Assembly (NCBI GenBank): GCA_963718915.1
Contig: CAVRAI010000014.1
Span: forward strand, 90,001-122,000
From: an uncultured Chloroflexia bacterium
GTDB lineage: Bacteria; Chloroflexota; Ktedonobacteria; Ktedonobacterales; JADMIN01
Length of the DNA stretch: 32,000 nucleotides
Direction: 5' to 3'
Positions 3,737 through 15,631 of the stretch are shown here, piece after piece (position 1 is the first letter of the stretch; each line of letters opens with the position of its first letter). Made by a program: the position numbers and the translations under genes. The notes under the pieces are model-generated. The model worked only from the letters and a program-made list of their open reading frames with translations. It did no database searches and was not told the origin of the DNA.

Positions 3737-6175
3737 ATGGCCTCAACATCGTCTCTGACCTTCGCGGATCTGCTGCGGTATCACCGGACAGCCGCCGGAC
3801 TGACCCAGGAAGAGCTGGCGGAGCGGGCACACCTGAGCGTGGACGCCATCAGCACGCTGGAGCGCGGGACGCGCCGGACGCCCCGCAAAGACACGGTGGC
3901 GCTCCTCGCCGATGCATTGCGCCTCGCGTCGGAGGATCGCGCCGCATTTGTCGCCGCTGCGGCTGCCGCCCGTCGTGCCCCGTCCGTCACGCTGGCTGCC
4001 GCTCAGCCCGAGAGCCTTGTTCATGACGCCGGAGAGGCCCAAACCGCCGTAGCGTCTGCCGCCAACAACCCGCCCCGTAGCTTCGGCGCCTTCCTCGTCG
4101 ATACGTGGTCAACCGCGCGCGCGCATCTTATTGTGGTGGTTGCGCTGACCCTCGCACTACTCACTTTTATCGGCCTGCTCTTGCCGCTCATCATCCCAGC
4201 GTTACCGCGCGCGCTGGGACTGGTGACAGGTGTGGTGTCTCTGACGCTGCTAGTGGCGATCATTTTGACGCGACCATTACGCCTGACGCTAGTACATCAA
4301 TGGCGTGAGGCGCGCAAGCCGTTCGTGGCGGTGACGAGTGTGTTGTTGATGCTGGTAGGCGTGCTCACTACCCTGCCCGTCACCGGTACTGCGCCGCTCG
4401 CGCAGTCCCAGCGAGCTGTCTACGATTACAGCTACACCTACCATCATCCAACACACATTGGTGGCTCGATCACCGTCGGCTGGGCGGAGACTCTCCAGAC
4501 ATTTGCCCCGAATTGGATAGGCAACGGTATCTCGTGGTTCACGACCTCTCCGGTCTGGCAGGGATGCATCGTGCAGCTTCCTGACCAGACGCTTGGGCTG
4601 GCGGGCTGGAAGGCGGACCAATGCACACAGGTTCCCTCGGTGGACAATGGCGGAGAGAGTCACGACGAGACGACGACGACGATCCACATCGATCCTCGGG
4701 CCGTCTGGTCGAATGGTGTGCCCATCACCGCCGATGATTTTCTGTTTGGCCAGCGCCTCGCCGCCGACCCCAACCTGACCGGCGGGTTCCCCTTCGATCA
4801 GATGACACTTACCAGGCTCGATGCCCATACCGTCCGGATCCGGTGGGCAACGCCCTATCCAGATTTTCTCACTGCTCTCAGTTATTTGTTCCCAGTGCCA
4901 CTGCATGTGTATGCCACGGGCAAGTTCTCCAACATCTTCGATCCGACGACGGGCGCCTATAACTCTGCGCTGGCCCAGCAACTCAGGACGACCCCAGCGT
5001 TTAATACAACCATCCCGGTAGATAACGGCCCTTTTACCGTGCAGAGCTTCATTCCAAACCATCAGGTGGTTCTAGTCAAAAACCATCGCTTCTTCTCGAA
5101 CTTCTTTCACATGCCGGCGTTGGATAAGATCATACTGCTGCCAGCTTCCAAAGACTTTCTTCCGCAGCTTGCAGTCCCGCTTAATCCAGTGCCCCAGATG
5201 GAAGCTGATGTTATCGATCAGTATCGGCGAGGCTTGCTGGATCTCGCACTGCCGTTGACGCCGATCAACCTGCGTCAGTTAGGGAGTATACCCGGAAATC
5301 AGGTGGAAATCGGCTCCGCGTCTGATACGATAGAGCTTGGGTTTAACGAGCTCAAAGTAGCGCCCAATGTACGCACGAAGGGGGGCGTGTCCATCTTCAC
5401 CGACCGTATGGTGCGCCAAGCATTCATCGAGGCTTTTAATCGCTGTGCGGCGGTGCAATCCCTGCTCGGCGGCGTCAAGTGCAACGATCCGACTATCTTC
5501 ACCGATGAGTCAGACGCGACTGCTGCCGTCGCGGCCTACGATCCCTCCTTCAAACTGCCAGCGTACAATCCCCCCGATGCCGCGCGCCTTATGGAGGCGG
5601 CAGGCTACCATCTGGTGGACGGCGTCCGCCGCAACAAAGATGGTGTGACCCCGCTAACTCTCAGACTTGTCGTCTCGCCTGGAGCGAGCGGGAGCACCAG
5701 CATCGCACGGCAGATGCAGCAAGACTTCTCCAAGAATCTGGATGTCGGCGTAATCATCGTGGACGATCAGATCGCCTTCTGGAATCAAGCGAGCCCAATC
5801 AATACAGGCGCTTTTGACCTGATACTGGTTGAATCGCAAAACAGCGTAGATCCCATCGGACGTCTGACTTTTGATATGGCTGGGCCGTTTGATAACGCGA
5901 CGATTCAACAGGGGCTAGACCCTTTTGGGATCATCGACGCGCAGGCGAGCCAACGCGACCAATTAGCGGCACAGACGCTCTCCGACGAGCAGCGAGCGGT
6001 CATCCTGCTGAATTTGCATCGCTACTTCTCCCAGCAGTACTACGTCGAGCCGATGTATATCAACGATGTCGTCGCGCTGAAGAAGCCGACACTGTGCAAC
6101 TTCAAGCTGTGGCCAGATCCCGGCAGTCTCCTCTGGAACATCGCGGATTGGTATGTCGCGCCCATGTGCCCATAG
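3737..6175 (+). CDS. membrane-tethered XRE-family HTH regulator fused to an extracytoplasmic family-5 (DppA/OppA-like) solute-binding domain
   Basis: Intact 812-aa ORF. The N-terminus LTQEELAERAHLSVDAISTLERGTRRTPRKDTVALLADAL is an XRE HTH. Three hydrophobic helices follow at aa ~125-215. The rest has SBP_bac_5-like features (HIDPRAVWSNGVPITADDFLFG, DNGPFTVQSF.PNHQVVLVKN). No ABC permease or ATPase genes are nearby. Confidence 0.85.
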   Translation: MASTSSLTFADLLRYHRTAAGLTQEELAERAHLSVDAISTLERGTRRTPRKDTVALLADALRLASEDRAAFVAAAAAARRAPSVTLAAAQPESLVHDAGEAQTAVASAANNPPRSFGAFLVDTWSTARAHLIVVVALTLALLTFIGLLLPLIIPALPRALGLVTGVVSLTLLVAIILTRPLRLTLVHQWREARKPFVAVTSVLLMLVGVLTTLPVTGTAPLAQSQRAVYDYSYTYHHPTHIGGSITVGWAETLQTFAPNWIGNGISWFTTSPVWQGCIVQLPDQTLGLAGWKADQCTQVPSVDNGGESHDETTTTIHIDPRAVWSNGVPITADDFLFGQRLAADPNLTGGFPFDQMTLTRLDAHTVRIRWATPYPDFLTALSYLFPVPLHVYATGKFSNIFDPTTGAYNSALAQQLRTTPAFNTTIPVDNGPFTVQSFIPNHQVVLVKNHRFFSNFFHMPALDKIILLPASKDFLPQLAVPLNPVPQMEADVIDQYRRGLLDLALPLTPINLRQLGSIPGNQVEIGSASDTIELGFNELKVAPNVRTKGGVSIFTDRMVRQAFIEAFNRCAAVQSLLGGVKCNDPTIFTDESDATAAVAAYDPSFKLPAYNPPDAARLMEAAGYHLVDGVRRNKDGVTPLTLRLVVSPGASGSTSIARQMQQDFSKNLDVGVIIVDDQIAFWNQASPINTGAFDLILVESQNSVDPIGRLTFDMAGPFDNATIQQGLDPFGIIDAQASQRDQLAAQTLSDEQRAVILLNLHRYFSQQYYVEPMYINDVVALKKPTLCNFKLWPDPGSLLWNIADWYVAPMCP

Positions 6176-6206
6176 ACGCGCGGAGACGTAGCGTGCGGAG
6201 ACAGCG

Positions 6207-6244
6207 AGCCAGCGGCATAGCAGCACAAAGTCGCGCCGCTGGCT
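6207..6244. terminator. hairpin between convergent genes
   Basis: agccagcggc (6207-6216) pairs with gccgctggct (6235-6244) as a perfect 10-bp stem with an 18-nt loop. It lies between stop 6175 (+) and stop 6298 (-). Confidence 0.35.
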
Positions 6245-6297
6245 TGTCGAGCACAGCATTGCCTGGACGGCGCGCTCATCCAGCGATGATGATATCG

Positions 6298-6805
6298 TCA
6301 GATGATGATATCGTCAATCTTCCAGTCTGATCCCTCCTGTACGAACGTCATACTGCCTCCCGACTGCGCCTGGGAGCCCAGCATTTCGAGTTTCACCGTG
6401 TAGAGGAGCTGGTCAGTCGCCTCTGTTCCGCTAATCTTCAGGAAGTCTCCCTGTCCCCATTCTGAGCAGTCGAGGAAGGTTTCCCCTCGGCACGATGTGG
6501 GGTATCTGCGAAGGTTTCGTGATGGTGTGTTTGTACTGGCTCGAAAGAAAGGTGTATGCCTGATTTAAATTGCCCCCATGGACAGCGCTGCAAAACTGCG
6601 TGATCGTCTTGATGATTAACTGACCTGAGCTGACGACCGGGCTGAACTGTGGATACGGCGTTGAGTTGCCGCTCGGCAACGTGGTTGTAGCCGCCTGCGG
6701 TAGCGGCAGAGCGCAGGCTACCAGCGGAACCAACACTGCCGCGGCGAATGCGGCGCGCGCCATGAATCGGCGGATCGAACCGGCGTGATAGGCACTCTTG
6801 CTCAC
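6298..6805 (-). CDS. lipoprotein with NTF2-like/DUF4878-like domain (one frame break near 6483-6486)
   Basis: GTG start behind AAGGAG. The signal peptide has an LVAC lipobox. ORF 6431-6805 stops early, but shifting frame at a C4 run restores ..RGETFLDCSEWGQGDFLKISGTEATDQLLYTVKLEMLGSQAQSGGSMTFVQEGSDWKIDDIII* ending at 6298. That sequence parallels the C-terminus of the TIR protein ecto-domain. Confidence 0.6.
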
Positions 6806-6826
6806 TGTCTGCTCCTTTTTCCTGCG

Positions 6827-7827
6827 CTACACGTCTGACTGAACGCTATCGATCTTCCACGTGCTGCCGTCTTTGATGAACTTCATCGTCTGGTTGCTGA
6901 CTGTGGTGCTTGCGCCAGTTGCCGTGAGTGCGCTGAACTGCACCTCGTTGCTCGCGGCATCTCCATTCTCGCGGTAGAAACCATCGATGCCCGAAGAAAA
7001 AGGCTGGCACCCAGTGATTGTGACCTGCTGGCCGCCGAATGCGGTGGTTAGCTTCGTCGCAACATCTTGCGGGCTGCCGATCCGCGCCTGGAAAGCGGGC
7101 GTGAGATAGGAGTAGGCGGTCGAGTAGTCGTTGTGTGAGATGGCAGTGCAAAACGCGTTGAGTGTGACGTGGGCGCCGTTGGTCGCATTTGCCTGGGTGA
7201 GATTGAGTGCCGAGTTAGAGATGAAGTTGAATCCAAGGTAGCCGAGACCAAGGACGACCACGCATCCGATGATGATGAACACGAGCGGAATGCCCACGAT
7301 GGCCGCGGCCTGCCGCTTGTTGAGTCCGGCCGATGGCGGATTCTGGATGAATCCCTGTACTGGCGCGCCACCCCTATTTTCGTGATGTCGTCGAGCAAGG
7401 TGTTGATATCCTGCTCGAAATACTGGTTATTGTGCATCGGCGCGACGTTTTGGACCACCAACTGCTCGATGGTCGCAGGTAACGTCTCCGCATCTGGTAT
7501 CCCTGCATCGTCGATAAGCACGGGAATGATGCGTTTGCGCCAGCGAATGGCTGTCTCCACCTCGATGCGTACAGGATCGTTGGGTTGGTCGAGCCGACGT
7601 CCGTGTGCATCGCTGATGTTGAGCCATTGCGGGCCGATGACAACCAGAACAACTTTGCACTTACGGATTGTCTGGTCGATGAACTCGCGGAAGTCCACGC
7701 CGCGTGGAATCTTTTCCACATCGTAAAAGATGGCCTCTCGCCCAAATGCCTGGACCAGGTGATCGAACAGGCGACCTGTTGTCCCTTTTTCGTCTGCCCG
7801 ACGGTATGACAAAAAGATGTCATTCAT
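6827..7827 (-). CDS. TIR domain protein with C-terminal TM helix and extracytoplasmic NTF2-like domain (one frame break at 7371-7374)
   Basis: ATG 7827 gives MNDIFLSYRRADEKGTTGRLFDHL..FYDVEKIPRGVDFREFI..VVLVVIGPQWL..DPVRIEVETAIRWRKRIIPVLID, which reads as a TIR_2-like domain. After a C4 run the next frame reads GGAPVQGFIQNPPSAGLNKRQAAAIVGIPLVFIIIGCVVVLGLGYLGF plus a ~125-aa domain (ORF 6827-7297). The tail of ORF 7048-7848 is an off-frame read. Confidence 0.75.
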
Positions 7828-8066
7828 GCGATTGTCACCTCTGTACACGCCTCAATTCTGTGTGAAACGAAGGGTTGTGAGTTAAAGCTCCCGATGCCTG
7901 GCATGGTGTGCGGAGATGGCGGACCGTCGCGCGGGTGGCGCTTGGCGGCTAGCTCCACGTGGGAGTGCTGTCTTGGTTTCCAGTCTGCCTGGATGAGCTT
8001 TGCAAGGCCACCGACAATCCGTACAATTGCCCCGACAAGCACCACGACAATCGCCTCGGATTGCAA
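7824..8066 (-). CDS. candidate small TM protein upstream of TIR gene (core 7962-8066)
   Basis: 80-aa ORF with a TTG start. Its TM core is conserved with 3493-3606. Its stop overlaps the TIR ATG (ATGA at 7824-7827). No clear SD; it may be regulatory DNA instead. Confidence 0.3.
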   Translation of the reverse strand: MQSEAIVVVLVGAIVRIVGGLAKLIQADWKPRQHSHVELAAKRHPRDGPPSPHTMPGIGSFNSQPFVSHRIEACTEVTIA

Positions 8067-8077
8067 GCTGAACAGTA

Positions 8078-8106
8078 TTGCGTATAAACAGGCGTGGTGT
8101 TATCAT
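8078..8106 (+). promoter_or_regulatory. putative promoter of second XRE-SBP copy
   Basis: TTGCGT, a 17-nt spacer, then TATCAT. An alternative is TTGCAA (8061-8066), 16 nt, then TATAAA (8083-8088). The block ggtgttatcat is shared with 3628-3638. Confidence 0.3.
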
Positions 8107-8233
8107 GCAGCGCAAACCCCGTACGTTAGGGATCGTGGGGATGGGGGACGAAGGGATGAGCCGGAGCCCTTCGATAGTGTTGCCTAGATCGTGTCGGTTG
8201 TCTTCCCGTAATCTGGGAAAGAGAGCGACGGCC

Positions 8234-10687
8234 ATGGCCTCTACCCCAGCGCCGACCTTCGCGGACTTGCTCCGATCCCACCGTGTGGCCGCTGGACTCA
8301 CCCAGGAAGAGCTGGCGGCGCAAGCGCAACTCAGCGTTGATGCCATCAGCACACTGGAGCGTGGGACACGCCGCACGCCCCGCAAAGACACCGTTATACT
8401 GCTAGCTGATGCGCTGAATCTCTCGCCAGATGATCGCGCCGCTTTTGCCGCCGCCGCCCGTCGTGCCCTGACAGCTCCGCTGGCCGACGATCAGCCTGAG
8501 AGCCTTGTTGATGACGCCGGAGAGGCCCAAACCGCCGCCGCGTCTGCCGCCAACAACCCACCCTGTAGCTTCAGCGCCTTCCTCGTCGATACGTGGTCAA
8601 CCGCTCGCGCGCATCTTATCGTGGTGGTTGCGCTGACCCTCGCACTACTCACGATTATCGGCTTGCTCTTGCCGCTCACCGTCCCCACGTTTCCACGCGC
8701 GCTTGGTGTGATCGCGGGGCTGGCCGCAATTTTACTGGCGGCGGGAATGGTGGGTATGGCACTGGCGCGCCAACAACATCCAGCGCTGTTGCGGCAGCAG
8801 TTACGGGAGATGCGCCAACCAGTAGTCGCAGTGACGAGTAGCTTGCTCAGCCTCGTGGTCGTTCTTACAACCCTGTTCGTGACCAAGCCTCTGCCTATCA
8901 CGTCGCATGGGCCAGGCGGGTATGCATTCTTCAGCTACACCTATCACAAACCGACGCACACCGGTGGCTCTATCGTCGTTGGCACGTATTTAGACACTAC
9001 AACAGTTGCCCCGCGCGCGGTTGTCCACGTTGGTGATGATTGGTATCAAGCCTTGTGGAACAGTTGTCTGGTACAGTTGCCTGATCTGTCACTGGGATTG
9101 AACGGCTGGAAGGCGGATCAGTGTGTGAACGTGCCGACGGTTGCCGACGGTGAGGAAAACGTTGATGGCAGAACAACAAACTCCCGAATCGATCCTCGCG
9201 CCGTCTGGTCGGATGGGGCGCCGTCACCGCCGGAGACTTCATGTTCACCTTCCAACTGATGAGAGATCGCAACATCGGCTTTTTCGGCTCGAGTGATACT
9301 CTGCCCTGGCGCTTGATGCGCCTCACCGCGCTTGACTCTCATACCGTGCGGATTGATTGGTCCGCCCCGTATGGTGACTATCTTTTTGCGCTCCAATGGC
9401 TGACCCCACTTCCGCTGCACGCCTACGCACGTGGTAAGTTCGCTGGAGTGTACGATCCAGTCACAGGTGTGTACAACGCCGCACTTGCTCAACAATTGGC
9501 GGCAGACGTTATCTCAACACGGCCATCCCAGTAGATAATGGCCCATTCACGCTGAAGAGTTTCGTACCGCATGACCGTTTCGTTGTGGTCAAGATTTCCC
9601 GCTTCTTCTCTAACTTCTTCCACGCGCCCGCGCTCGATCAGATCACATTTGTCTCTACATCAGCGCCCAACATTGCTGTGAGCGAACAATTCGCAGCCTC
9701 CAAACGTGCATTGATTGCTGCATATCAACAAGGTGGACTGACGCTGGCCCTTGGATTGGGAGCCGCTGTATATGAATCAGTTAGGACGTATTCCTACTCA
9801 GGAGGTGATGAGCAGCCCCGTGCTCCGTTTCCTGATCCTGGGCTTCAACCAACGAAGCATAGCGCCCAACGCTCAAGCCAATGGTGGCGCGTCGATCTTC
9901 ACTGACATTACAGTGCGTAAGGCATTCACCGAGGCGTTTGACCGTTGTGCGGCGATGCATTTCGTGCTCGGCATTCACGACTGCAATGACCCAAGCTTCC
10001 ATACCGACGAACTCAGCGCGCCACCAGCCGCGGAGTACGATCCGACTGTCACAATGCCGACGTTCAACCCCACCGACGCCGCTGCGCTCATGGAACGCCT
10101 TGGCTTCCACGTAGTAGATGGTATCCGGCGATACAAGGATGGAAAGACGCCCATCAAGCTGACGCTTGCCCCTTCGCCATACGCCGTACAATTCGAGGAT
10201 ATCGCTCGTCGAATGCAACAAGACTACGCCCAGAACCTGAAGGTCGCTGTGAGTGTTGTGAGCGCTGATGTGGAGCCGAGCTTTTTTGTTCCAGGCGGGC
10301 TGGCGCAGACCGGGGCGTTCGACGTTGCCCTGTGGGGTGATGAAAATCTTGGTACGCCAGTGGACTTTATTGCGAATTATGGATGGGACAGCGCAGAGCA
10401 TACCAAGCGCGCAAAATCCTATTGGCGGCAACTTCCTGGGGGTGATAAATCCCTGGGTCCTCAGGCAGGATGAGCGTGGATCGCAGATATACGATGGCAG
10501 CCAGCGCACAGAAATTTACCGCGAGTTGGCGAGCCATGTGGCTCACTCACTCAGCATCGAGCCGCTATTCATCAATGCTGATATTTCACTGGTGAAACCG
10601 ACGCTCTGCAACTTCAAGCACTGGCCGCAATCCGGCTTCGATCTTTGGAACATCGCGGATTGGTATGTAGCGCCTTCATGCCCGTAG
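8234..10687 (+). pseudogene. paralogue of the XRE-HTH/TM/SBP5 fusion, interrupted by 4 frameshifts
   Basis: MASTPAPTFADLLRSHRVAAGLTQEELAAQAQLSVDAISTLERGTRRTPRKDTV.. is collinear with 3737-6175 across ORFs 8078-9259, 9241-9534, 9585-9905, 9751-10473 and 10268-10687. Frame breaks lie near 9221, ~9510, ~9765 and ~10390. I saw no in-frame stops. The C-terminus ..KPTLCNFKHWPQSGFDLWNIADWYVAPSCP matches copy A. Confidence 0.8.
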
Positions 10688-10705
10688 AGCGCGCTTAGGA
10701 GCGAC

Positions 10706-12015
10706 TCATTCGGCGCGCGCAGCCAGAGCGAGAGGTTCGTCTGGCTCCATCGTCTGCTGTACGACCACCAGTAAATGTTCGCTTAGGTCGCTCAGGTTGA
10801 CCTCCTGCCGCAGCGTGGCGCTGAAGCTGGCCAGCGTCTGCTCGACATTGTATTTGCGGCGATAGAAGCGGCGGTCGATGACACGCTGGAGACGGCGGCG
10901 TAACGGCTGGAAGAGCGCGGCGATGAGCAGTGTCGTCACCACGATAAGGGCGGGCGATGGCTCGCTGCTCTGACGCTGGGCGAATGCGTTGACGATGGCC
11001 TGCACGCCGACGACTCCCCCGACGTAGATCAGCGCAAGGATGGCGGTGAGCGAGCCGTAGACCAGCGTCCGGTTGATGATGACGTCGATATCGTAGAGCC
11101 GCGAGCGCAGAATCGCGATGGCTATCGAGATGGGGATCAGCAGCAGGAATCCTGCAAAGGCGGTCTGCGCGACAAACGTGCTGATCACGCTCGAAGCCAG
11201 CAACTCCGGTGGCAGCAGGAGATTCCCCAGCGTAAGGAGCGCACAAAGCCCACCATGCGATGGCAAAGCCGAAGACAACCCATTTGGTCTGCTGGCGCTC
11301 TCGATGGGTCGAGACGCGACGATAGCGGTAGATCTGCGCGGCTACAGGAGCCAGGACCGAGCCGAAGAAGAAGAGAATACTCCAGTCGAATGACTCACTG
11401 TAGATGAGATGGCTGAAGTAATCATAGGTCCAGTATCCACCAACCATGAGGACAAGCAGCCAGCTCTAACGTGGCACAAAGCGCCCATTAGGGAAGAGGA
11501 AGAAGAAGGTGATGAGACTGGTCTGCCCAAGGATATAGAGGATGCCGATACAACCAGAATCCAACGCCGGGCTGCACCGCCAGCGTATCCTGAAGGGTGG
11601 TCTCAAATGCGGCGCCACCAAAGAGCACCAGCGTGAAGGCGCAGAAGAGGGCCATCCGGTCACTGGAGCGCCGCCAGAAGATGATGGCGGCAATCACGCA
11701 GTAGATCAATACAACGACCGCGTTCCCTGCCGTCTGAAAATTTGCCAGGAATCCCAGCGTCAGGCCAGACTGGCGGAACAAACGCTGATCGAACGGCGTT
11801 GGGTGCAGATAAAAGCAGTGGATGCCGGGGGAACACGGCGTCTGCAGCAGTGCATTAAACCGCGGTAGCATGACGAAATTGAGCGCCAGCACAAGCAGCG
11901 TCAGCGCGATCCAGGCGACGCGGGCGATGAACAGCCAGGGGCCATGCAGCGTCTGTCCGCTGTCGGTCGAAGGCTGGACCGTGGCGCGCTCGACGGTCAT
12001 CGCTGGCTGATTCAT
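10706..12015 (-). pseudogene. paralogue of membrane protein 1596-2903, with 2 frameshifts and one in-frame TAG
   Basis: ATG 12015 sits behind GAGGAG. The pieces are 11488-12078, 11466-11693, 10695-11447 and 10706-11278. LFPNGRFVPR is followed by TAG (11466-11468) where the paralogue has Trp (VPRW). The tail LFQPLRRRLQRVIDRRFYRRKYNVEQTLASF matches copy A. Confidence 0.75.
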
Positions 12016-12115
12016 GTCTGACTGGCTCCTCGATACGATGACGATATTCGATCTGGCTTCTGGCGCGGAGCATACCATCGGCCCGTTACGAAACCGCTAC
12101 GGATCATAGCGCGCA

Positions 12116-12916
12116 TCAGAAGCCGAACAGGTGCGGTATCACATTGCCGAGGAGGTAGCCGCCCAGGGCGGAGGCCGTGCCGACGACGACGACCTCCAGC
12201 GCGCTCCGCACCAGATTGATGTTGGCGAGCCGCCCTTTGATAATGCCGACGATCACCAGCGCCAGCACCGTCAGCGCCAGCGAGACGGGCAGCGCGGGTG
12301 ATCGGCAGGAAGAAGTAGGCGATCAGCGGGAAGATGGAGCCGATGATATAGGAGACGCCCATCGTCAGCGCCTCGGGGATATGGACGGTGTCGGGGTCAA
12401 TCTGCAGCCCAAGCTCTTTCTCGACCATCGTTTTGTGATAGGCGTCGGGATATTTCGCCAGCAGGTTGGCCATCGTCGTGGCGTCCTCGGCGCTCACGCC
12501 TTCGTGGCGGAAAAGATGCGCCATCTCGTCCAGCTCGAACTCCGGGTTGTCGCGAATCTCGCGCAGTTCTTTCTCACCTCGGTCTTCTGCACCTGCGCCT
12601 CGGAGCGCCCAGAGATGAACTCGCCCGCGCCCATCGAGAGCGCCCCCGCGAACGCCTCCGCCAGCCCGGCGATGATGACCGCGTTCGTACTGCCCGTGCC
12701 GCCAGCCACCGCGCTCACCACGCCCACCGGCACCAGCAGTCCATCCAGCGTGCCAAAGACCACCTCGCGGATGCGGCTCAGCCGCGCGATGCGCGCCTTC
12801 TCGCCATAGAGATGCTCGTCTGCTTTCCTGCCGTCTGGCTGTCCGGTGGTAGCGAACTCTCCAAGGTGTCTCTCCTTCACGTCAATGCTTCGTGCCACCA
12901 ATAACTCACGCCACAA
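12116..12916 (-). pseudogene. VIT1/CCC1-family iron/manganese transporter, 2 frame breaks
   Basis: REVVFGTLDGLLVPVGVVSAVAGG..AGALSMGAGEFISGRSE (12494-12916). Then ..MAHLFRHEGVSAEDATTMANLLAKYP..LTMGVSYIIGSIFPLIAYFFLP (12012-12524). Then my translation LPVSLALTVLALVIVGIIKGRLANINLVRSALEVVVVGTASALGGYLLGNVIPHLFGF* ending at 12116. Confidence 0.75.
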
Positions 12917-13050
12917 TACTATGAGTCCATGCTACGGAAGGATACGAGACAAGATCGCTCCTCCAGGCAACACAACAGCCCCACCCGGCTGACGATGCGA
13001 TTGCCCATCCGCCGAGATGAGGCTGTGTCGTGTGTTGTGAGTGAGCGCCG

Positions 13051-15340
13051 CTAGCCAGCCGACGAGCAGACGTAGAGTGTGCCGCCGGATGTCGCCGCCA
13101 TACTCGCTCGCGGCGACCTGCGTGCAGTTCGACGTGACCCAGCTCACTAACTGGCCGTTGCCGCCGCCCTGACCGCCGAAGCCGCCACCACCGCCATCCA
13201 GCAGGAAGTAGCGAATGGCCCCGGAGCTAACCAGCGCCTGAAGCTGGCTCACGCTCAGAATCTGGTCGGAGCCGCTAAAGCCACCCAGCGCGATGACCGG
13301 CTGGCCGCTTGCGATGATGTAGGGCGCCGCCGTCTGCGAGTTGAGCGTCGCGAGGAGGTAGCGGGCCGAGCCGCGATGCGCCTCCAGGTAGGCGAGCAAC
13401 TGCTCGTTCACCTGCAAGCTCTGGCCGCCGTTGCCATTGGCGACGCCGCCAGTGGGCGCGCCACCGCCGCCGTTGCCCGGCCCAAATTGTCCGTTGCCCT
13501 GCCCGCCGAAGGCTGGTGGGAAGCCGCCGAGGCCGCCATTGCGCGGGCCACCGGGGACGAAGCCGTTGGGGGAGAGCGGCCGCCGCCAAGCCCGCGCGGG
13601 CCACCGTTGCCGCCGAAGCCACCACCCTGCGCCAGACTCGCCGAGGGGCCAGCCGTCGGCAGCGTGCCACCCGCGCCGCTGGCCAGCGAGACGCCCACCC
13701 AGGTCGCCGGGCCAAGCAGCAGCAGCGCGACACCGAGCGCCGTCGCCACCACCGCAACCGCCGACGAGCGGCAGCCGGTCCGCGAATGCATTGCGCGGCG
13801 TATCGACAGCAGGCAGCGGTCCACCGGTGGCGGGCAGCAGCGTGGGGTAGCAGGCGGCGCGTGGAACGCCACCAGGCCAGCAGCGCGGCGATCGGCAGCG
13901 AGCCACCGACGATCAGCGGCGTCATCCAGCGGTTCCAGCGGTGTAGTCGGCCAGGATGACGCCTGGACAAGGGCGGTGACGACGCAGCGCGACCGGCAGC
14001 AGACAACCATGCCAGCCCGCCGCGCGATAGTCACGCCAGAGCAGGACGCCCGATGCCGGCCAGCGCGGCGATGCCTGGCGCGAGCATCGAGAGATAATAG
14101 GTGTGGATAGAAGCCCGCGACGCTGAAGAAGATCGCCATCGTCAGCGTCCAGCCGCCCCAGAGCGCCAGCGCCGACTGTTGCGGCGTCAGATGGGCGTTG
14201 CGCCGCGCCTCCGCCGAGTGGAACCAGGAGCGGACGTCGGCGCGACGAGCGACTGCCCGTTCCGGCGGATGCCCCAGCCCGTCGCCAGCAGGCCGATCGA
14301 CGCCGAGCGCGAGCAGCCAGCTCACCTGGCCGCCAAGCTGCGCATTCAGCAGGCGGAAGAGGCCCGGCACGCCGTTCTCGGAGACGCCGCCGGGCCCGCC
14401 CGCCGCGGTCGGTCCGCTGGTGATGGCCGAGATGATGGACGAGCCGGAGGTTGAGCCGCCACGGAAGACCATGCCCAGCAGCCGCTGGATGCCGTTGTAG
14501 CCGAGGGCCAGATCAAGCTCGGAGTTGGTGCCGCTGGAGCCGACGTAGGGGCGCTGGCGTGGCGGGCGTCAGGTCCACGGCGACGACCCAGGCGAGCGAG
14601 ACGGCCAGCATCAGCCGCGCCGGCGACGCGCCAGGTGCCAGAGGCGCGTGCGCCAGCGCAGCGGCGCGCCGAGCAGATAGACAGCGCGAAGGCCGGCACG
14701 ACCAGATAGGCCTCGAGCATCTTGATGTTGAAGCCGAGGCCGACCAGCACCGCGCCGAGCAGCAGCCAGCGCAGGCTGCCCGCGCTCGGCGGCGCGGCTC
14801 ACGGCCCAGGCGCCCAGCAGCACGGTCAGCACGAGCAGGCTGTCGATGGTGTTGTTGCGGTTGGTGACGACGCTGATCGGCGTGATGGCCAGGAACAGCG
14901 CCGCCAGCAGCCCGGCGCACGGCGCCGAAGACGCGCCGCACCAGATGATAGAGCACGCCGACCGAGAGCACGCCGGCCAGCGCCTCGGGCAGCAGGATGC
15001 TGAAGCCGCTGAAGCCGAAGAGCTTGGCGCTGGCCGCCTGGATCCAGAAGCCGAGCGGCGGCTTATCGACGGTGACGAAGCCGCCCGGATCGAAGGAGAC
15101 GAAGAAGAAGTTGTGCCAGCTCTCCAGCATGCTGCGGATGGCCGCCGCGTAGTAGAGGTTGGCGTAGCCGTTGCGCTGCAGCTCGTAGAAGTTGGTGAAG
15201 GCGGCCAGCAACAGGATCAGCGCGAGCGCCTGGCGGCGGCGCGGCTCCCAGAAGGCGCGCAAACGCCCAGGGAGCGAGCGGAACGGTGAGGCTGGCGACG
15301 CGGCGTCATCGAGCGCCGGTGGGGCGATATCGGTTGCCAT
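13051..15340 (-). pseudogene. glycosyltransferase family 39 (ArnT/PMT-like) membrane protein, at least 6 frame breaks
   Basis: The N-terminus reads ..ALILLLAAFTNFYELQRNGYANLYYAAAIRSMLESWHNFFFVSFDPGGFVTVDKPPLGFWIQAASAKLFGF. Later pieces are scattered over all three frames (14611-14832, 14346-14750, 13408-14472, 13275-14006, 12932-13906). The C-terminus reads ..LLAYLEAHRGSARYLLATLNSQTAAPYIIASGQPVIALGGFSGSD..IRYFLLDGGGGG..ASEYGG, then with a shift GGTLYVCSSAG* ending at 13051. Confidence 0.75.
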
Positions 15341-15631
15341 GGTCTCCTCCTGTGGTCGTTGGCTGAGTCATCCAATCATACGCTGATCGTGGCGTGATCG
15401 GTTGACGAAATATGACGACATGTGTGTATCAAGTGCGGCGCATGTGGGATGTTTCTCAGCCACTGTACCGGCGCAACATTCACGTTCGATGTGAGTCCGA
15501 TGTGTGTTCTCTCATGATAGGAAGCGAGCACAGAGATGTGAAATGCTCCAGCTTCGCGGCATGAATGCCGCGGCTAATCCCAACCACATGGCCCTCATTG
15601 CCCGGCGAAAGGTACATTCGCCCCAGGATTA

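Follow-up and report, generated by a model that had tools for sequence, protein, structure and literature searches.

A 32,000-nucleotide stretch of DNA from an uncultured Chloroflexia soil bacterium of the order Ktedonobacterales (lineage JADMIN01; GenBank assembly GCA_963718915.1, contig CAVRAI010000014.1, positions 90,001 to 122,000 of the forward strand), hereafter the window, encodes on its minus strand a membrane protein with an N-terminal TIR domain and, directly downstream, a lipoprotein related to the C-terminal part of that protein. We propose, with about as much confidence as doubt, that the two genes constitute a conserved envelope module of Ktedonobacterales-type Chloroflexota, comprising a receptor with its TIR domain in the cytoplasm and an NTF2-like domain outside, and a tethered lipoprotein paralogue of that outer domain (the ecto-domain), which would control the TIR domain. 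The features discussed below are collected in Table 1, with all coordinates given as positions in the window.

Table 1. Features of the proposed TIR receptor locus and its flanking genes in the window
Feature	Position	Strand	Basis or remarks
Receptor gene	6827..7827	-	333 aa after restoring one G by 7360; TIR, linker, transmembrane (TM) helix, predicted NTF2-like ecto-domain
TIR domain, residues 1-150	7378..7827	-	Pfam TIR_2; Foldseek and phmmer matches to SARM1
TIR/TM frame-break site	7359..7361	-	1-nt deletion; window CCAGTAC, sister contig CCAGGTAC
Single TM helix (AAAIVGIPLVFIIIGCVVVLGLGYLGF)	7229..7309	-	AlphaFold2 helix 171-203, hydropathy, charge; Lys/Arg only on the N-terminal side
Predicted extracytoplasmic NTF2-like domain, residues 216-333	6830..7183	-	Invariant C227, C274, and W324; AlphaFold2 and Foldseek
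Lipoprotein gene	6298..6805	-	168 aa after removing one G from the run 6486-6483; GTG start, lipobox LVAC
Lipoprotein frame-break site	6483..6486	-	One extra G in the run; homologues read ...IVPRETFLDCSEW
Small TTG-start open reading frame	7824..8066	-	Stop overlaps the TIR ATG (ATGA); contains the TIR Shine-Dalgarno sequence 7841-7836; promoter region
XRE-HTH/TM/SBP_bac_5 one-component-type regulator, divergent neighbor	8234..10687	+	At least four frame switches (tblastn with the intact paralogue)
XRE-HTH/TM/SBP_bac_5 intact 812-aa paralogue, convergent neighbor	3737..6175	+	Pfam HTH_31/HTH_3 and SBP_bac_5

Architecture of the proposed receptor and its lipoprotein paralogue

The ATG of the receptor gene lies 8 nt past the Shine-Dalgarno sequence GAGGTG, its product begins with MNDIFLSYRRAD, and its stop codon is the TAG at 6829-6827. 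The first frame makes sense up to ...DDITKIGVARQ, after which a second frame picks up with ...QGFIQNPPSAGLNKRQAAAIVGIPLVFIIIGCVVVLGLGYLGF... and runs through a domain of ~118 aa to the C terminus, ...WKIDSVQSDV. With the missing G restored, the junction reads ...KIGVARQVQGFIQNPPSAG..., the same as in all homologues, which, like P0017, have GVAR(Q/K)xQG over the break site. A sister contig (L002; ENA ERZ25039457 contig_16752) that is 99% identical to window positions 6201-8300 lacks this break, and hence we consider the break in the window to be almost certainly an assembly error. A preliminary description of the locus, made from the nucleotides alone, had put it in the C4 run at 7371-7374; the actual site is next to 7360, ~10 nt downstream on the minus strand.

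The open reading frame (ORF) that starts at 7827 matches the Pfam TIR_2 model (PF13676) with an E value of 3e-13 and 50.8 bits against a cut-off of 28, and the same model is matched by every one of the 24 proteins of the family alignment, which consists of the repaired window receptor and 23 homologues (321-378 aa) and which was the basis of an AlphaFold2 (AF2) model. This model (mean pLDDT, the predicted local confidence score, 83) displays a TIR fold at residues 1-150, a linker, a long helix at 171-203, and an alpha+beta cone at 218-331. The best PDB match of its TIR part is the TIR domain of human SARM1 (Foldseek E value, 1.8e-8; target template modeling [TM] score, 0.84; root mean square deviation, 2.6 A), followed by SPARTA TIR-APAZ, AbTir, and plant TIRs; by sequence, too, SARM1 comes first among the solved relatives (phmmer E value, 9e-6). 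In the phmmer alignment, DPVRIEVETAI of the window lies over DWVHKEIVTAL of SARM1, which places E89 (codon 7563-7561) on the active-site Glu of SARM1, which we take to be the catalytic E642. Both E89 and E91 are invariant across the 24 members. By this retained Glu, the domain is predicted to be of the SARM1-like enzymatic type and would be expected to cleave NAD+. The TIR domain that the preliminary description had read at 7827->7372 is thus borne out, both by a significant TIR_2 match of the kind it had asked for and by the SARM1-like fold of the model, as is its placement of a conserved Glu in VRIEVETAI at the catalytic position.

Near-full-length homologues of the repaired receptor number ~30, at 40 to 68% identity, and at least 24 full-length homologues are intact; a scan of metagenome contigs yielded a single additional full-length member (L084), and most homologues come from one JGI sample. 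Each of the 24 aligned proteins has a single 21-mer of strong hydrophobicity, with no other candidate segment, and no signal peptide was found ahead of the TIR domain in the receptor. When the 15-residue flanks of the TM segment are summed over the family, there are 45 Lys or Arg residues on the TIR side versus 4 on the C-terminal side. The domain beyond the membrane contains two invariant Cys residues, and in 23 of the 24 members it has these two and no others. The lack of a signal peptide, the lone TM segment, the charge bias, and the Cys pair therefore jointly support a predicted topology with the TIR domain inside and the ecto-domain outside, in which the Cys pair would form an extracytoplasmic disulfide. 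This accords with the earlier description of one TM helix (now placed at 7309->7229) followed by a C-terminal domain (the ~118-aa alpha+beta domain after the break), with the TIR domain inside and a sensor domain outside. The two halves differ in conservation, the mean pairwise identity being 72% for the TIR domain versus 44% for the ecto-domain; such a combination of a conserved output with a variable sensor is in keeping with the proposed module.

In the AF2 model, the ecto-domain consists of helices (218-259) followed by strands (270-331), with pLDDT values mostly between 75 and 96, and its structural matches include limonene epoxide hydrolase and the RsgI9 NTF2 domain (Foldseek E values, ~2-4e-4; target TM score, ~0.45). 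When 1.84 billion representatives were searched exhaustively with phmmer, only 89 relatives of this domain were retrieved. When scanned against Pfam (n = 84), these relatives matched MecA_N (36), DUF4864 (19), and DUF3887 (13), with SnoaL_3 also carried among them, and in some cases (P0145 and P0131), the Pfam match coincides with the very stretch that aligns to the window ecto-domain. Because of the model matches and of the relatives with MecA_N, DUF4864, and DUF3887, we assign the ecto-domain to the NTF2-like class as a prediction at the level of the fold only. The relatives further combine it with FHA (7), TIR_2 (5), and Ser/Thr kinase (4) domains; hence, it appears to be a reused extracytoplasmic module of single-pass signaling proteins whose outputs include kinase, FHA, and TIR domains. 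P0141 and P0162, for instance, are Ser/Thr kinase proteins, with or without FHA, that bear tandem NTF2-like outside domains related to the ecto-domain.

The lipoprotein gene starts with a GTG at 6805, behind AAGGAG (6817-6812) and 21 bp past the receptor stop. Its product begins with the signal region RRFMARAAFAAAVLVPLVAC, and the positively charged N-region, the hydrophobic region, and the lipobox (LVAC, at 6724-6713) of a lipoprotein are all present, and lipidation is predicted. The frame is lost near 6486 and regained as ETFLDCSEW...MTFVQEGSDWKIDDIII, ending at the stop codon 6300-6298. The lipoprotein aligns with the receptor ecto-domain by BLASTP (E value, 3e-11; 23% identity over 108 aa), with both Cys residues in register. 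A profile search recovered 12 lipoprotein clusters, and with the truncated P0122 excluded, a lipobox followed by exactly two Cys residues is found in all 11 full-length versions; the copy in contig L001 also has a lipobox. The LVAC lipoprotein and its sharing of the domain type of the receptor, with both Cys residues kept, had likewise been noted before and are upheld. A 16-bp tandem duplication (GACGATATCATCATCT / GACGATATCATCATCG; window 6284-6315, minus strand), which is also present in L002, spans the lipoprotein stop; the close homologue P0121 ends in ...DDIIIAG, and because of the duplication, the stop in the window comes two codons early.

The pair and its relatives in other genomes

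The receptor and lipoprotein genes adjoin each other in 11 loci and in two gene orders, each of which belongs to a different subclade, a stronger linkage than the preliminary description could have seen from the window. The lipoprotein gene lies downstream in seven of these (the window, L002, the P0121 contig, P0003/P0124, P0005/P0125, P0001/P0212, and L083) and upstream in the other four (L001, P0006/P0216, L164, and L165). Because adjacency survives this change of gene order, we see good evidence for a predicted functional pair. A neighbor-joining tree separates the receptor domains from the lipoproteins, one clade each, and the subclades of the one clade correspond to those of the other, which indicates a likely old duplication of the outside domain, followed by codiversification of the two copies. 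A short-read JGI contig of a close relative has all three genes of the locus intact, with products of 818 aa (the XRE-HTH/TM/SBP_bac_5 protein, hereafter XRE-SBP), 333 aa (the TIR protein), and 156 aa (the lipoprotein). In L001 (7281-7923), the lipoprotein paralogue that precedes the P0008 TIR gene falls in two reading frames and has been called as two small genes; it is another gene hidden by insertion or deletion (indel) errors in long-read contigs.

As regards the TIR domain itself, one or more segments of strong hydrophobicity occur in 98 of its 120 nearest relatives, most often directly after the TIR domain, and membrane TIR relatives of this type (P0036-P0120) come from many phyla. More distant TIR relatives carry FGE-sulfatase, PAN, WD40, TPR, SH3, or DUF805 parts. 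The only close genome match is a Ktedonobacterales metagenome-assembled genome (L003, 1166-2206), in which the TIR-linker-TM part is 69% identical and the outside part is a different beta-rich, Cys-containing domain, as in P0035; this points to probable domain swapping on a constant TIR-TM unit. Membrane anchoring with the N terminus inside thus appears to be the norm for this TIR subfamily, with the outside part being swapped.

A survey of Escherichia coli TIR systems lists one TM-containing system and remarks that features like those of Toll-like receptors (TLRs) seem absent from bacterial TIR systems (PMC11350192). Our literature searches on bacterial membrane or receptor TIR proteins, on TIR together with NTF2-like domains, and on Ktedonobacter together with TIR found no description of such proteins, with the subscription literature being partly covered, so that the absence is not proof. 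The preliminary description had held that no described system combines a membrane TIR, an outward sensor, and a secreted paralogue. As regards published descriptions, this stands, but the layout itself is common in the databases, because those 98 of the 120 nearest relatives are of the membrane type and many have other outside domains.

Genomic neighborhood and assembly quality

The receptor pair is flanked by two XRE-SBP paralogues, which are ~63% identical over their N-terminal 330 aa and whose SBP_bac_5 part is extracytoplasmic. The head-to-head arrangement of a membrane-bound XRE regulator with the TIR gene, which had been pointed out from the sequence, does exist in the window, but a conserved partnership does not follow: XRE-SBP genes adjoin the receptor pair only in the window, L002, and the P0121 contig, and the contexts of P0001, P0002, P0003, P0006, and P0008 differ. 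We therefore rejected the XRE-SBP gene as a conserved partner, given that the synteny is limited to close relatives. Similarly, the small TM-containing ORF ahead of the TIR gene does overlap the TIR start through ATGA, as had been reported in favor of coupling, but it is not supported as a gene: the start codon is TTG, a 2-nt difference in L002 disrupts the frame, no homologue of it lies upstream of the TIR genes in L001, L003, or L083, and gene calling left the corresponding 400-bp gap of the syntenic short-read JGI contig empty. Having rejected it as a gene coupled to TIR on these grounds, we regard 8066->7824 as probably no gene but a 5' untranslated or promoter region. Of the genes whose co-occurrence had been proposed, the receptor and the lipoprotein hold together, but the small ORF and, outside close relatives, the XRE-SBP gene do not.

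The frame breaks raise the question of whether the locus is sound. Between window positions 6201-8300 and L002 there are ten gap positions, all of them 1- to 2-nt indels at short homopolymers, with the sites differing by assembly; in the receptor gene, four indel events occur in L002 but not in the window. Since the break positions are unlike in the two assemblies, programmed frameshifting was rejected. The G run at the break in the lipoprotein gene is of equal length in the window and in L002, and this break may hence be a true frameshift or else an error that recurs systematically at the homopolymer. Beyond the pair, the frame switches in the divergent XRE-SBP gene and the fragmentation of several genes at 10.5 to 15.5 kb make the indel-rich locus fit a noisy long-read assembly. 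A decaying cluster of pseudogenes, with real frame breaks and nothing functional being made in this genome, strikes us as highly improbable. It would draw on the two breaks within ~1.5 kb, on the further breaks (at least four) in the adjacent XRE-SBP gene, and on the presence of the lipoprotein break in both independent assemblies. Against this, the TIR break of the window is not found in L002 and the four indels of L002 are not found in the window, the affected sites being different short homopolymers; the genes at 10.5 to 15.5 kb are broken as well; and the sequence, which is free of in-frame stops and large deletions, is otherwise fully conserved with respect to the intact homologues.

Window positions 6160-10500 and L002 are ~99% identical with few indels, and positions 10500-15588 are only ~90% identical with many indels, a mosaic that suggests strain recombination or patchwork in one assembly. 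The genes for a VIT1-family protein and a PMT_2/YkcB glycosyltransferase (10695-15340, minus strand) are in pieces, each spread over several ORFs, as fits a part of the assembly that is rich in indels. An Rfam scan of the window found nothing, and a promoter and terminator scan of 6100-8400 gave nothing above chance. A search with PADLOC-DB 2.0 returned only weak partial matches to TIR proteins (ThsB, PDC-S66, and SAVED_TIR) and none for the lipoprotein. The P0003 and P0006 contigs contain additional TIR_2 genes (187 aa and 547 aa), as well as FGE-sulfatase genes, a few kilobases from the family members, a hint that TIR and sensor genes cluster locally in these genomes.

Possible mechanism and relationship to known systems

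Several observations weigh against the proposed module. The Pfam NTF2-like models reach their cut-off in none of the 24 family members, the best score being one of 19.4 bits for DUF4864 (E value, 1.3e-3; cut-off, 27.1) in a single member; the window receptor itself has only a weak DUF4864 match, and the Pfam scan of the lipoproteins returned no NTF2-like match; the outside NTF2-like domain of the preliminary description is hence supported by the fold and by the Pfam content of relatives but not by a Pfam cut-off. The AF2 model of the lipoprotein, computed from a five-sequence alignment, is poor (pLDDT, 56), and what agrees with the ecto-domain is the order of helices and then strands alone; binding between the two is putative. 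In the more distant member on the 2-kb contig L084, no paralogue adjoins the receptor gene, and the lipoprotein gene may really be broken in the population represented by the window. The neighborhood consists of ordinary genes, with no defense island or mobile element, and the ThsB-like match in PADLOC is weak and partial (E value, 2.8e-5; 66 residues, 4-69). Many close TIR relatives are merely tail anchored, with no ecto-domain and no more than 30 residues past the TM helix, and membrane tethering alone may therefore be the point. Further, function as a whole is something that we infer, be it the NADase activity, the outside trigger, or the role of the lipoprotein.

A rival account is that of a tethered TIR effector triggered from the cytoplasm, by a phage protein or an internal signal, for instance, with the TM helix and the outside domain serving to localize, restrain, or oligomerize it and with the lipoprotein being a structural or assembly partner and not one related to a ligand. 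To our knowledge, every characterized bacterial TIR system senses cytoplasmic cues (PMC11350192), and the tail-anchored relatives fit such an account. So does the amoeba protein TirC (PMC13142454), a TIR NADase that came from bacteria and that would be toxic if its N-terminal TM helix did not hold it in check. TirC resembles the window receptor in having a TIR NADase held on the membrane by one helix, with the tether curbing toxicity; it is unlike it in that its helix is N terminal, it lacks both an outside domain and a paralogous partner, and its host is eukaryotic. An internal trigger leaves unaccounted for a folded and conserved ecto-domain with an invariant Cys pair and a coevolving secreted paralogue, the other sensor-type outside domains (FGE-sulfatase and PAN) borne by the TIR-TM unit, and the presence of the related NTF2-like module on receptor kinases. 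We therefore find this account rather doubtful.

Under the proposed module, the receptor would display a SARM1-like TIR domain in the cytoplasm and a disulfide-containing NTF2-like domain on the outside, and the lipoprotein, an anciently duplicated version of the outward domain, would be anchored on the same face of the membrane of a monoderm cell. TIR enzymes such as SARM1, TIR-STING, TIR-SAVED, and SPARTA are switched on by self-association. By analogy, the state of the ecto-domain, whether free, ligand bound, or paired with the lipoprotein, might set the packing of the cytoplasmic TIR domains, whose clustering would lead to NAD+ cleavage and thence to growth arrest, cell death, or a nucleotide signal. 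The lipoprotein could be a decoy or inhibitor that holds receptors apart or, alternatively, a coreceptor. Carrying this further, we tentatively entertain the possibility that these are true outside-in bacterial TIR receptors, in which a cue from outside the cell (damage to the envelope, a product of a phage or competitor, or the disappearance of the lipoprotein) is relayed across the TM helix to a SARM1-type NADase, with the lipoprotein as decoy or coreceptor, and that the family might be a single branch of an extensive, so far undescribed repertoire of membrane TIR receptors of multicellular bacteria whose outside domains are interchangeable.

An alternative that dispenses with immunity is a pair devoted to envelope homeostasis, development, or kin recognition in the mycelium-forming Ktedonobacteria, with the TIR domain being a scaffold or the maker of a signaling nucleotide. 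The housekeeping-like genomic context and the confinement of the family to one lineage are in keeping with this, as are the ties of MecA_N-type NTF2 domains to cell wall enzymes and the sharing of the module with FHA and Ser/Thr kinase signaling proteins. Nevertheless, we think it unlikely: a pure scaffold is at odds with the retained SARM1-type Glu and with the closeness of the domain to NAD-consuming TIRs, and the conserved output, the variable sensor, and the exchange of outside domains are reminiscent of receptor repertoires of the immune type.

Several parallels with known systems place the module. SARM1, AbTir, TIR-STING, TIR-SAVED, SPARTA TIR-APAZ, and ThsB share the TIR fold of the window receptor, which keeps the active-site Glu. 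The logic of SARM1 and the bacterial TIR effectors, in which a sensor controls TIR self-association and thereby NAD+ cleavage, would be expected here too. These proteins are soluble and their cues cytoplasmic (cyclic nucleotides, a guide RNA with its target, or the NMN/NAD ratio), whereas the window TIR is fused via a TM helix to an outside domain. There is no ThsA, cyclase, Argonaute, or STING partner near the pair; in particular, a ThsA-like gene (SIR2, or Macro/TM with SLOG), which together with ThsB defines Thoeris, was not found among the pair or the scanned neighbors.

The window receptor shares with Toll-like and interleukin-1 (IL-1) receptors a single membrane pass, with the sensor outside and the TIR domain inside, and the lipoprotein finds analogues in IL-1R2 and CD14/MD-2, which are separate tethered or secreted relatives or helpers of the outside part. 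However, TLRs have their N terminus outside and C terminus inside, and the animal receptors have leucine-rich repeats (LRRs) or immunoglobulin domains and a TIR that is an adaptor-recruiting scaffold, whereas the window receptor has its N terminus inside and C terminus outside, an NTF2-like domain without LRRs, and a SARM1-type TIR. The relationship is one of functional analogy and not of whole-protein homology. The same fold class is found outside a single TM helix in Clostridium thermocellum RsgI9 (S1C-NTF2; PDB 7sjy), in TM proteins with FHA or Ser/Thr kinase domains, and in PBP2a (MecA_N), with the FHA- and kinase-linked outside domains having detectable homology to the window ecto-domain. 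The RsgI9, FHA, and kinase proteins have other outputs (anti-sigma, FHA, or kinase) and tandem copies of the domain; the window receptor has a TIR output and a single copy, and the dedicated lipoprotein paralogue is specific to its family. In multicellular bacteria, caspase effectors have been described with FGE-sulfatase or CHASE2 outside domains (PMC3501461, PMC8195603). These caspase-TM-sensor proteins, which are enriched in filamentous or multicellular lineages, join a death-type effector on the inside to a sensor that varies on the outside, and the window receptor likewise has its effector inside, albeit of the TIR rather than the caspase type; FGE-sulfatase domains recur on close relatives of its TIR domain.

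The receptor family is small and clearly delimited and has intact members. It also flags a far larger group of TIR proteins that are anchored in the membrane and appear to be undescribed, with outside domains of the FGE-sulfatase, PAN, WD40, SH3, or beta-sandwich type. If the outside-in reading is true, the family would provide bacteria with their first example of the logic of the animal Toll/IL-1 receptors, built independently and with the opposite polarity, and would imply that NAD+-depleting suicide or signaling modules can be controlled from the cell surface.

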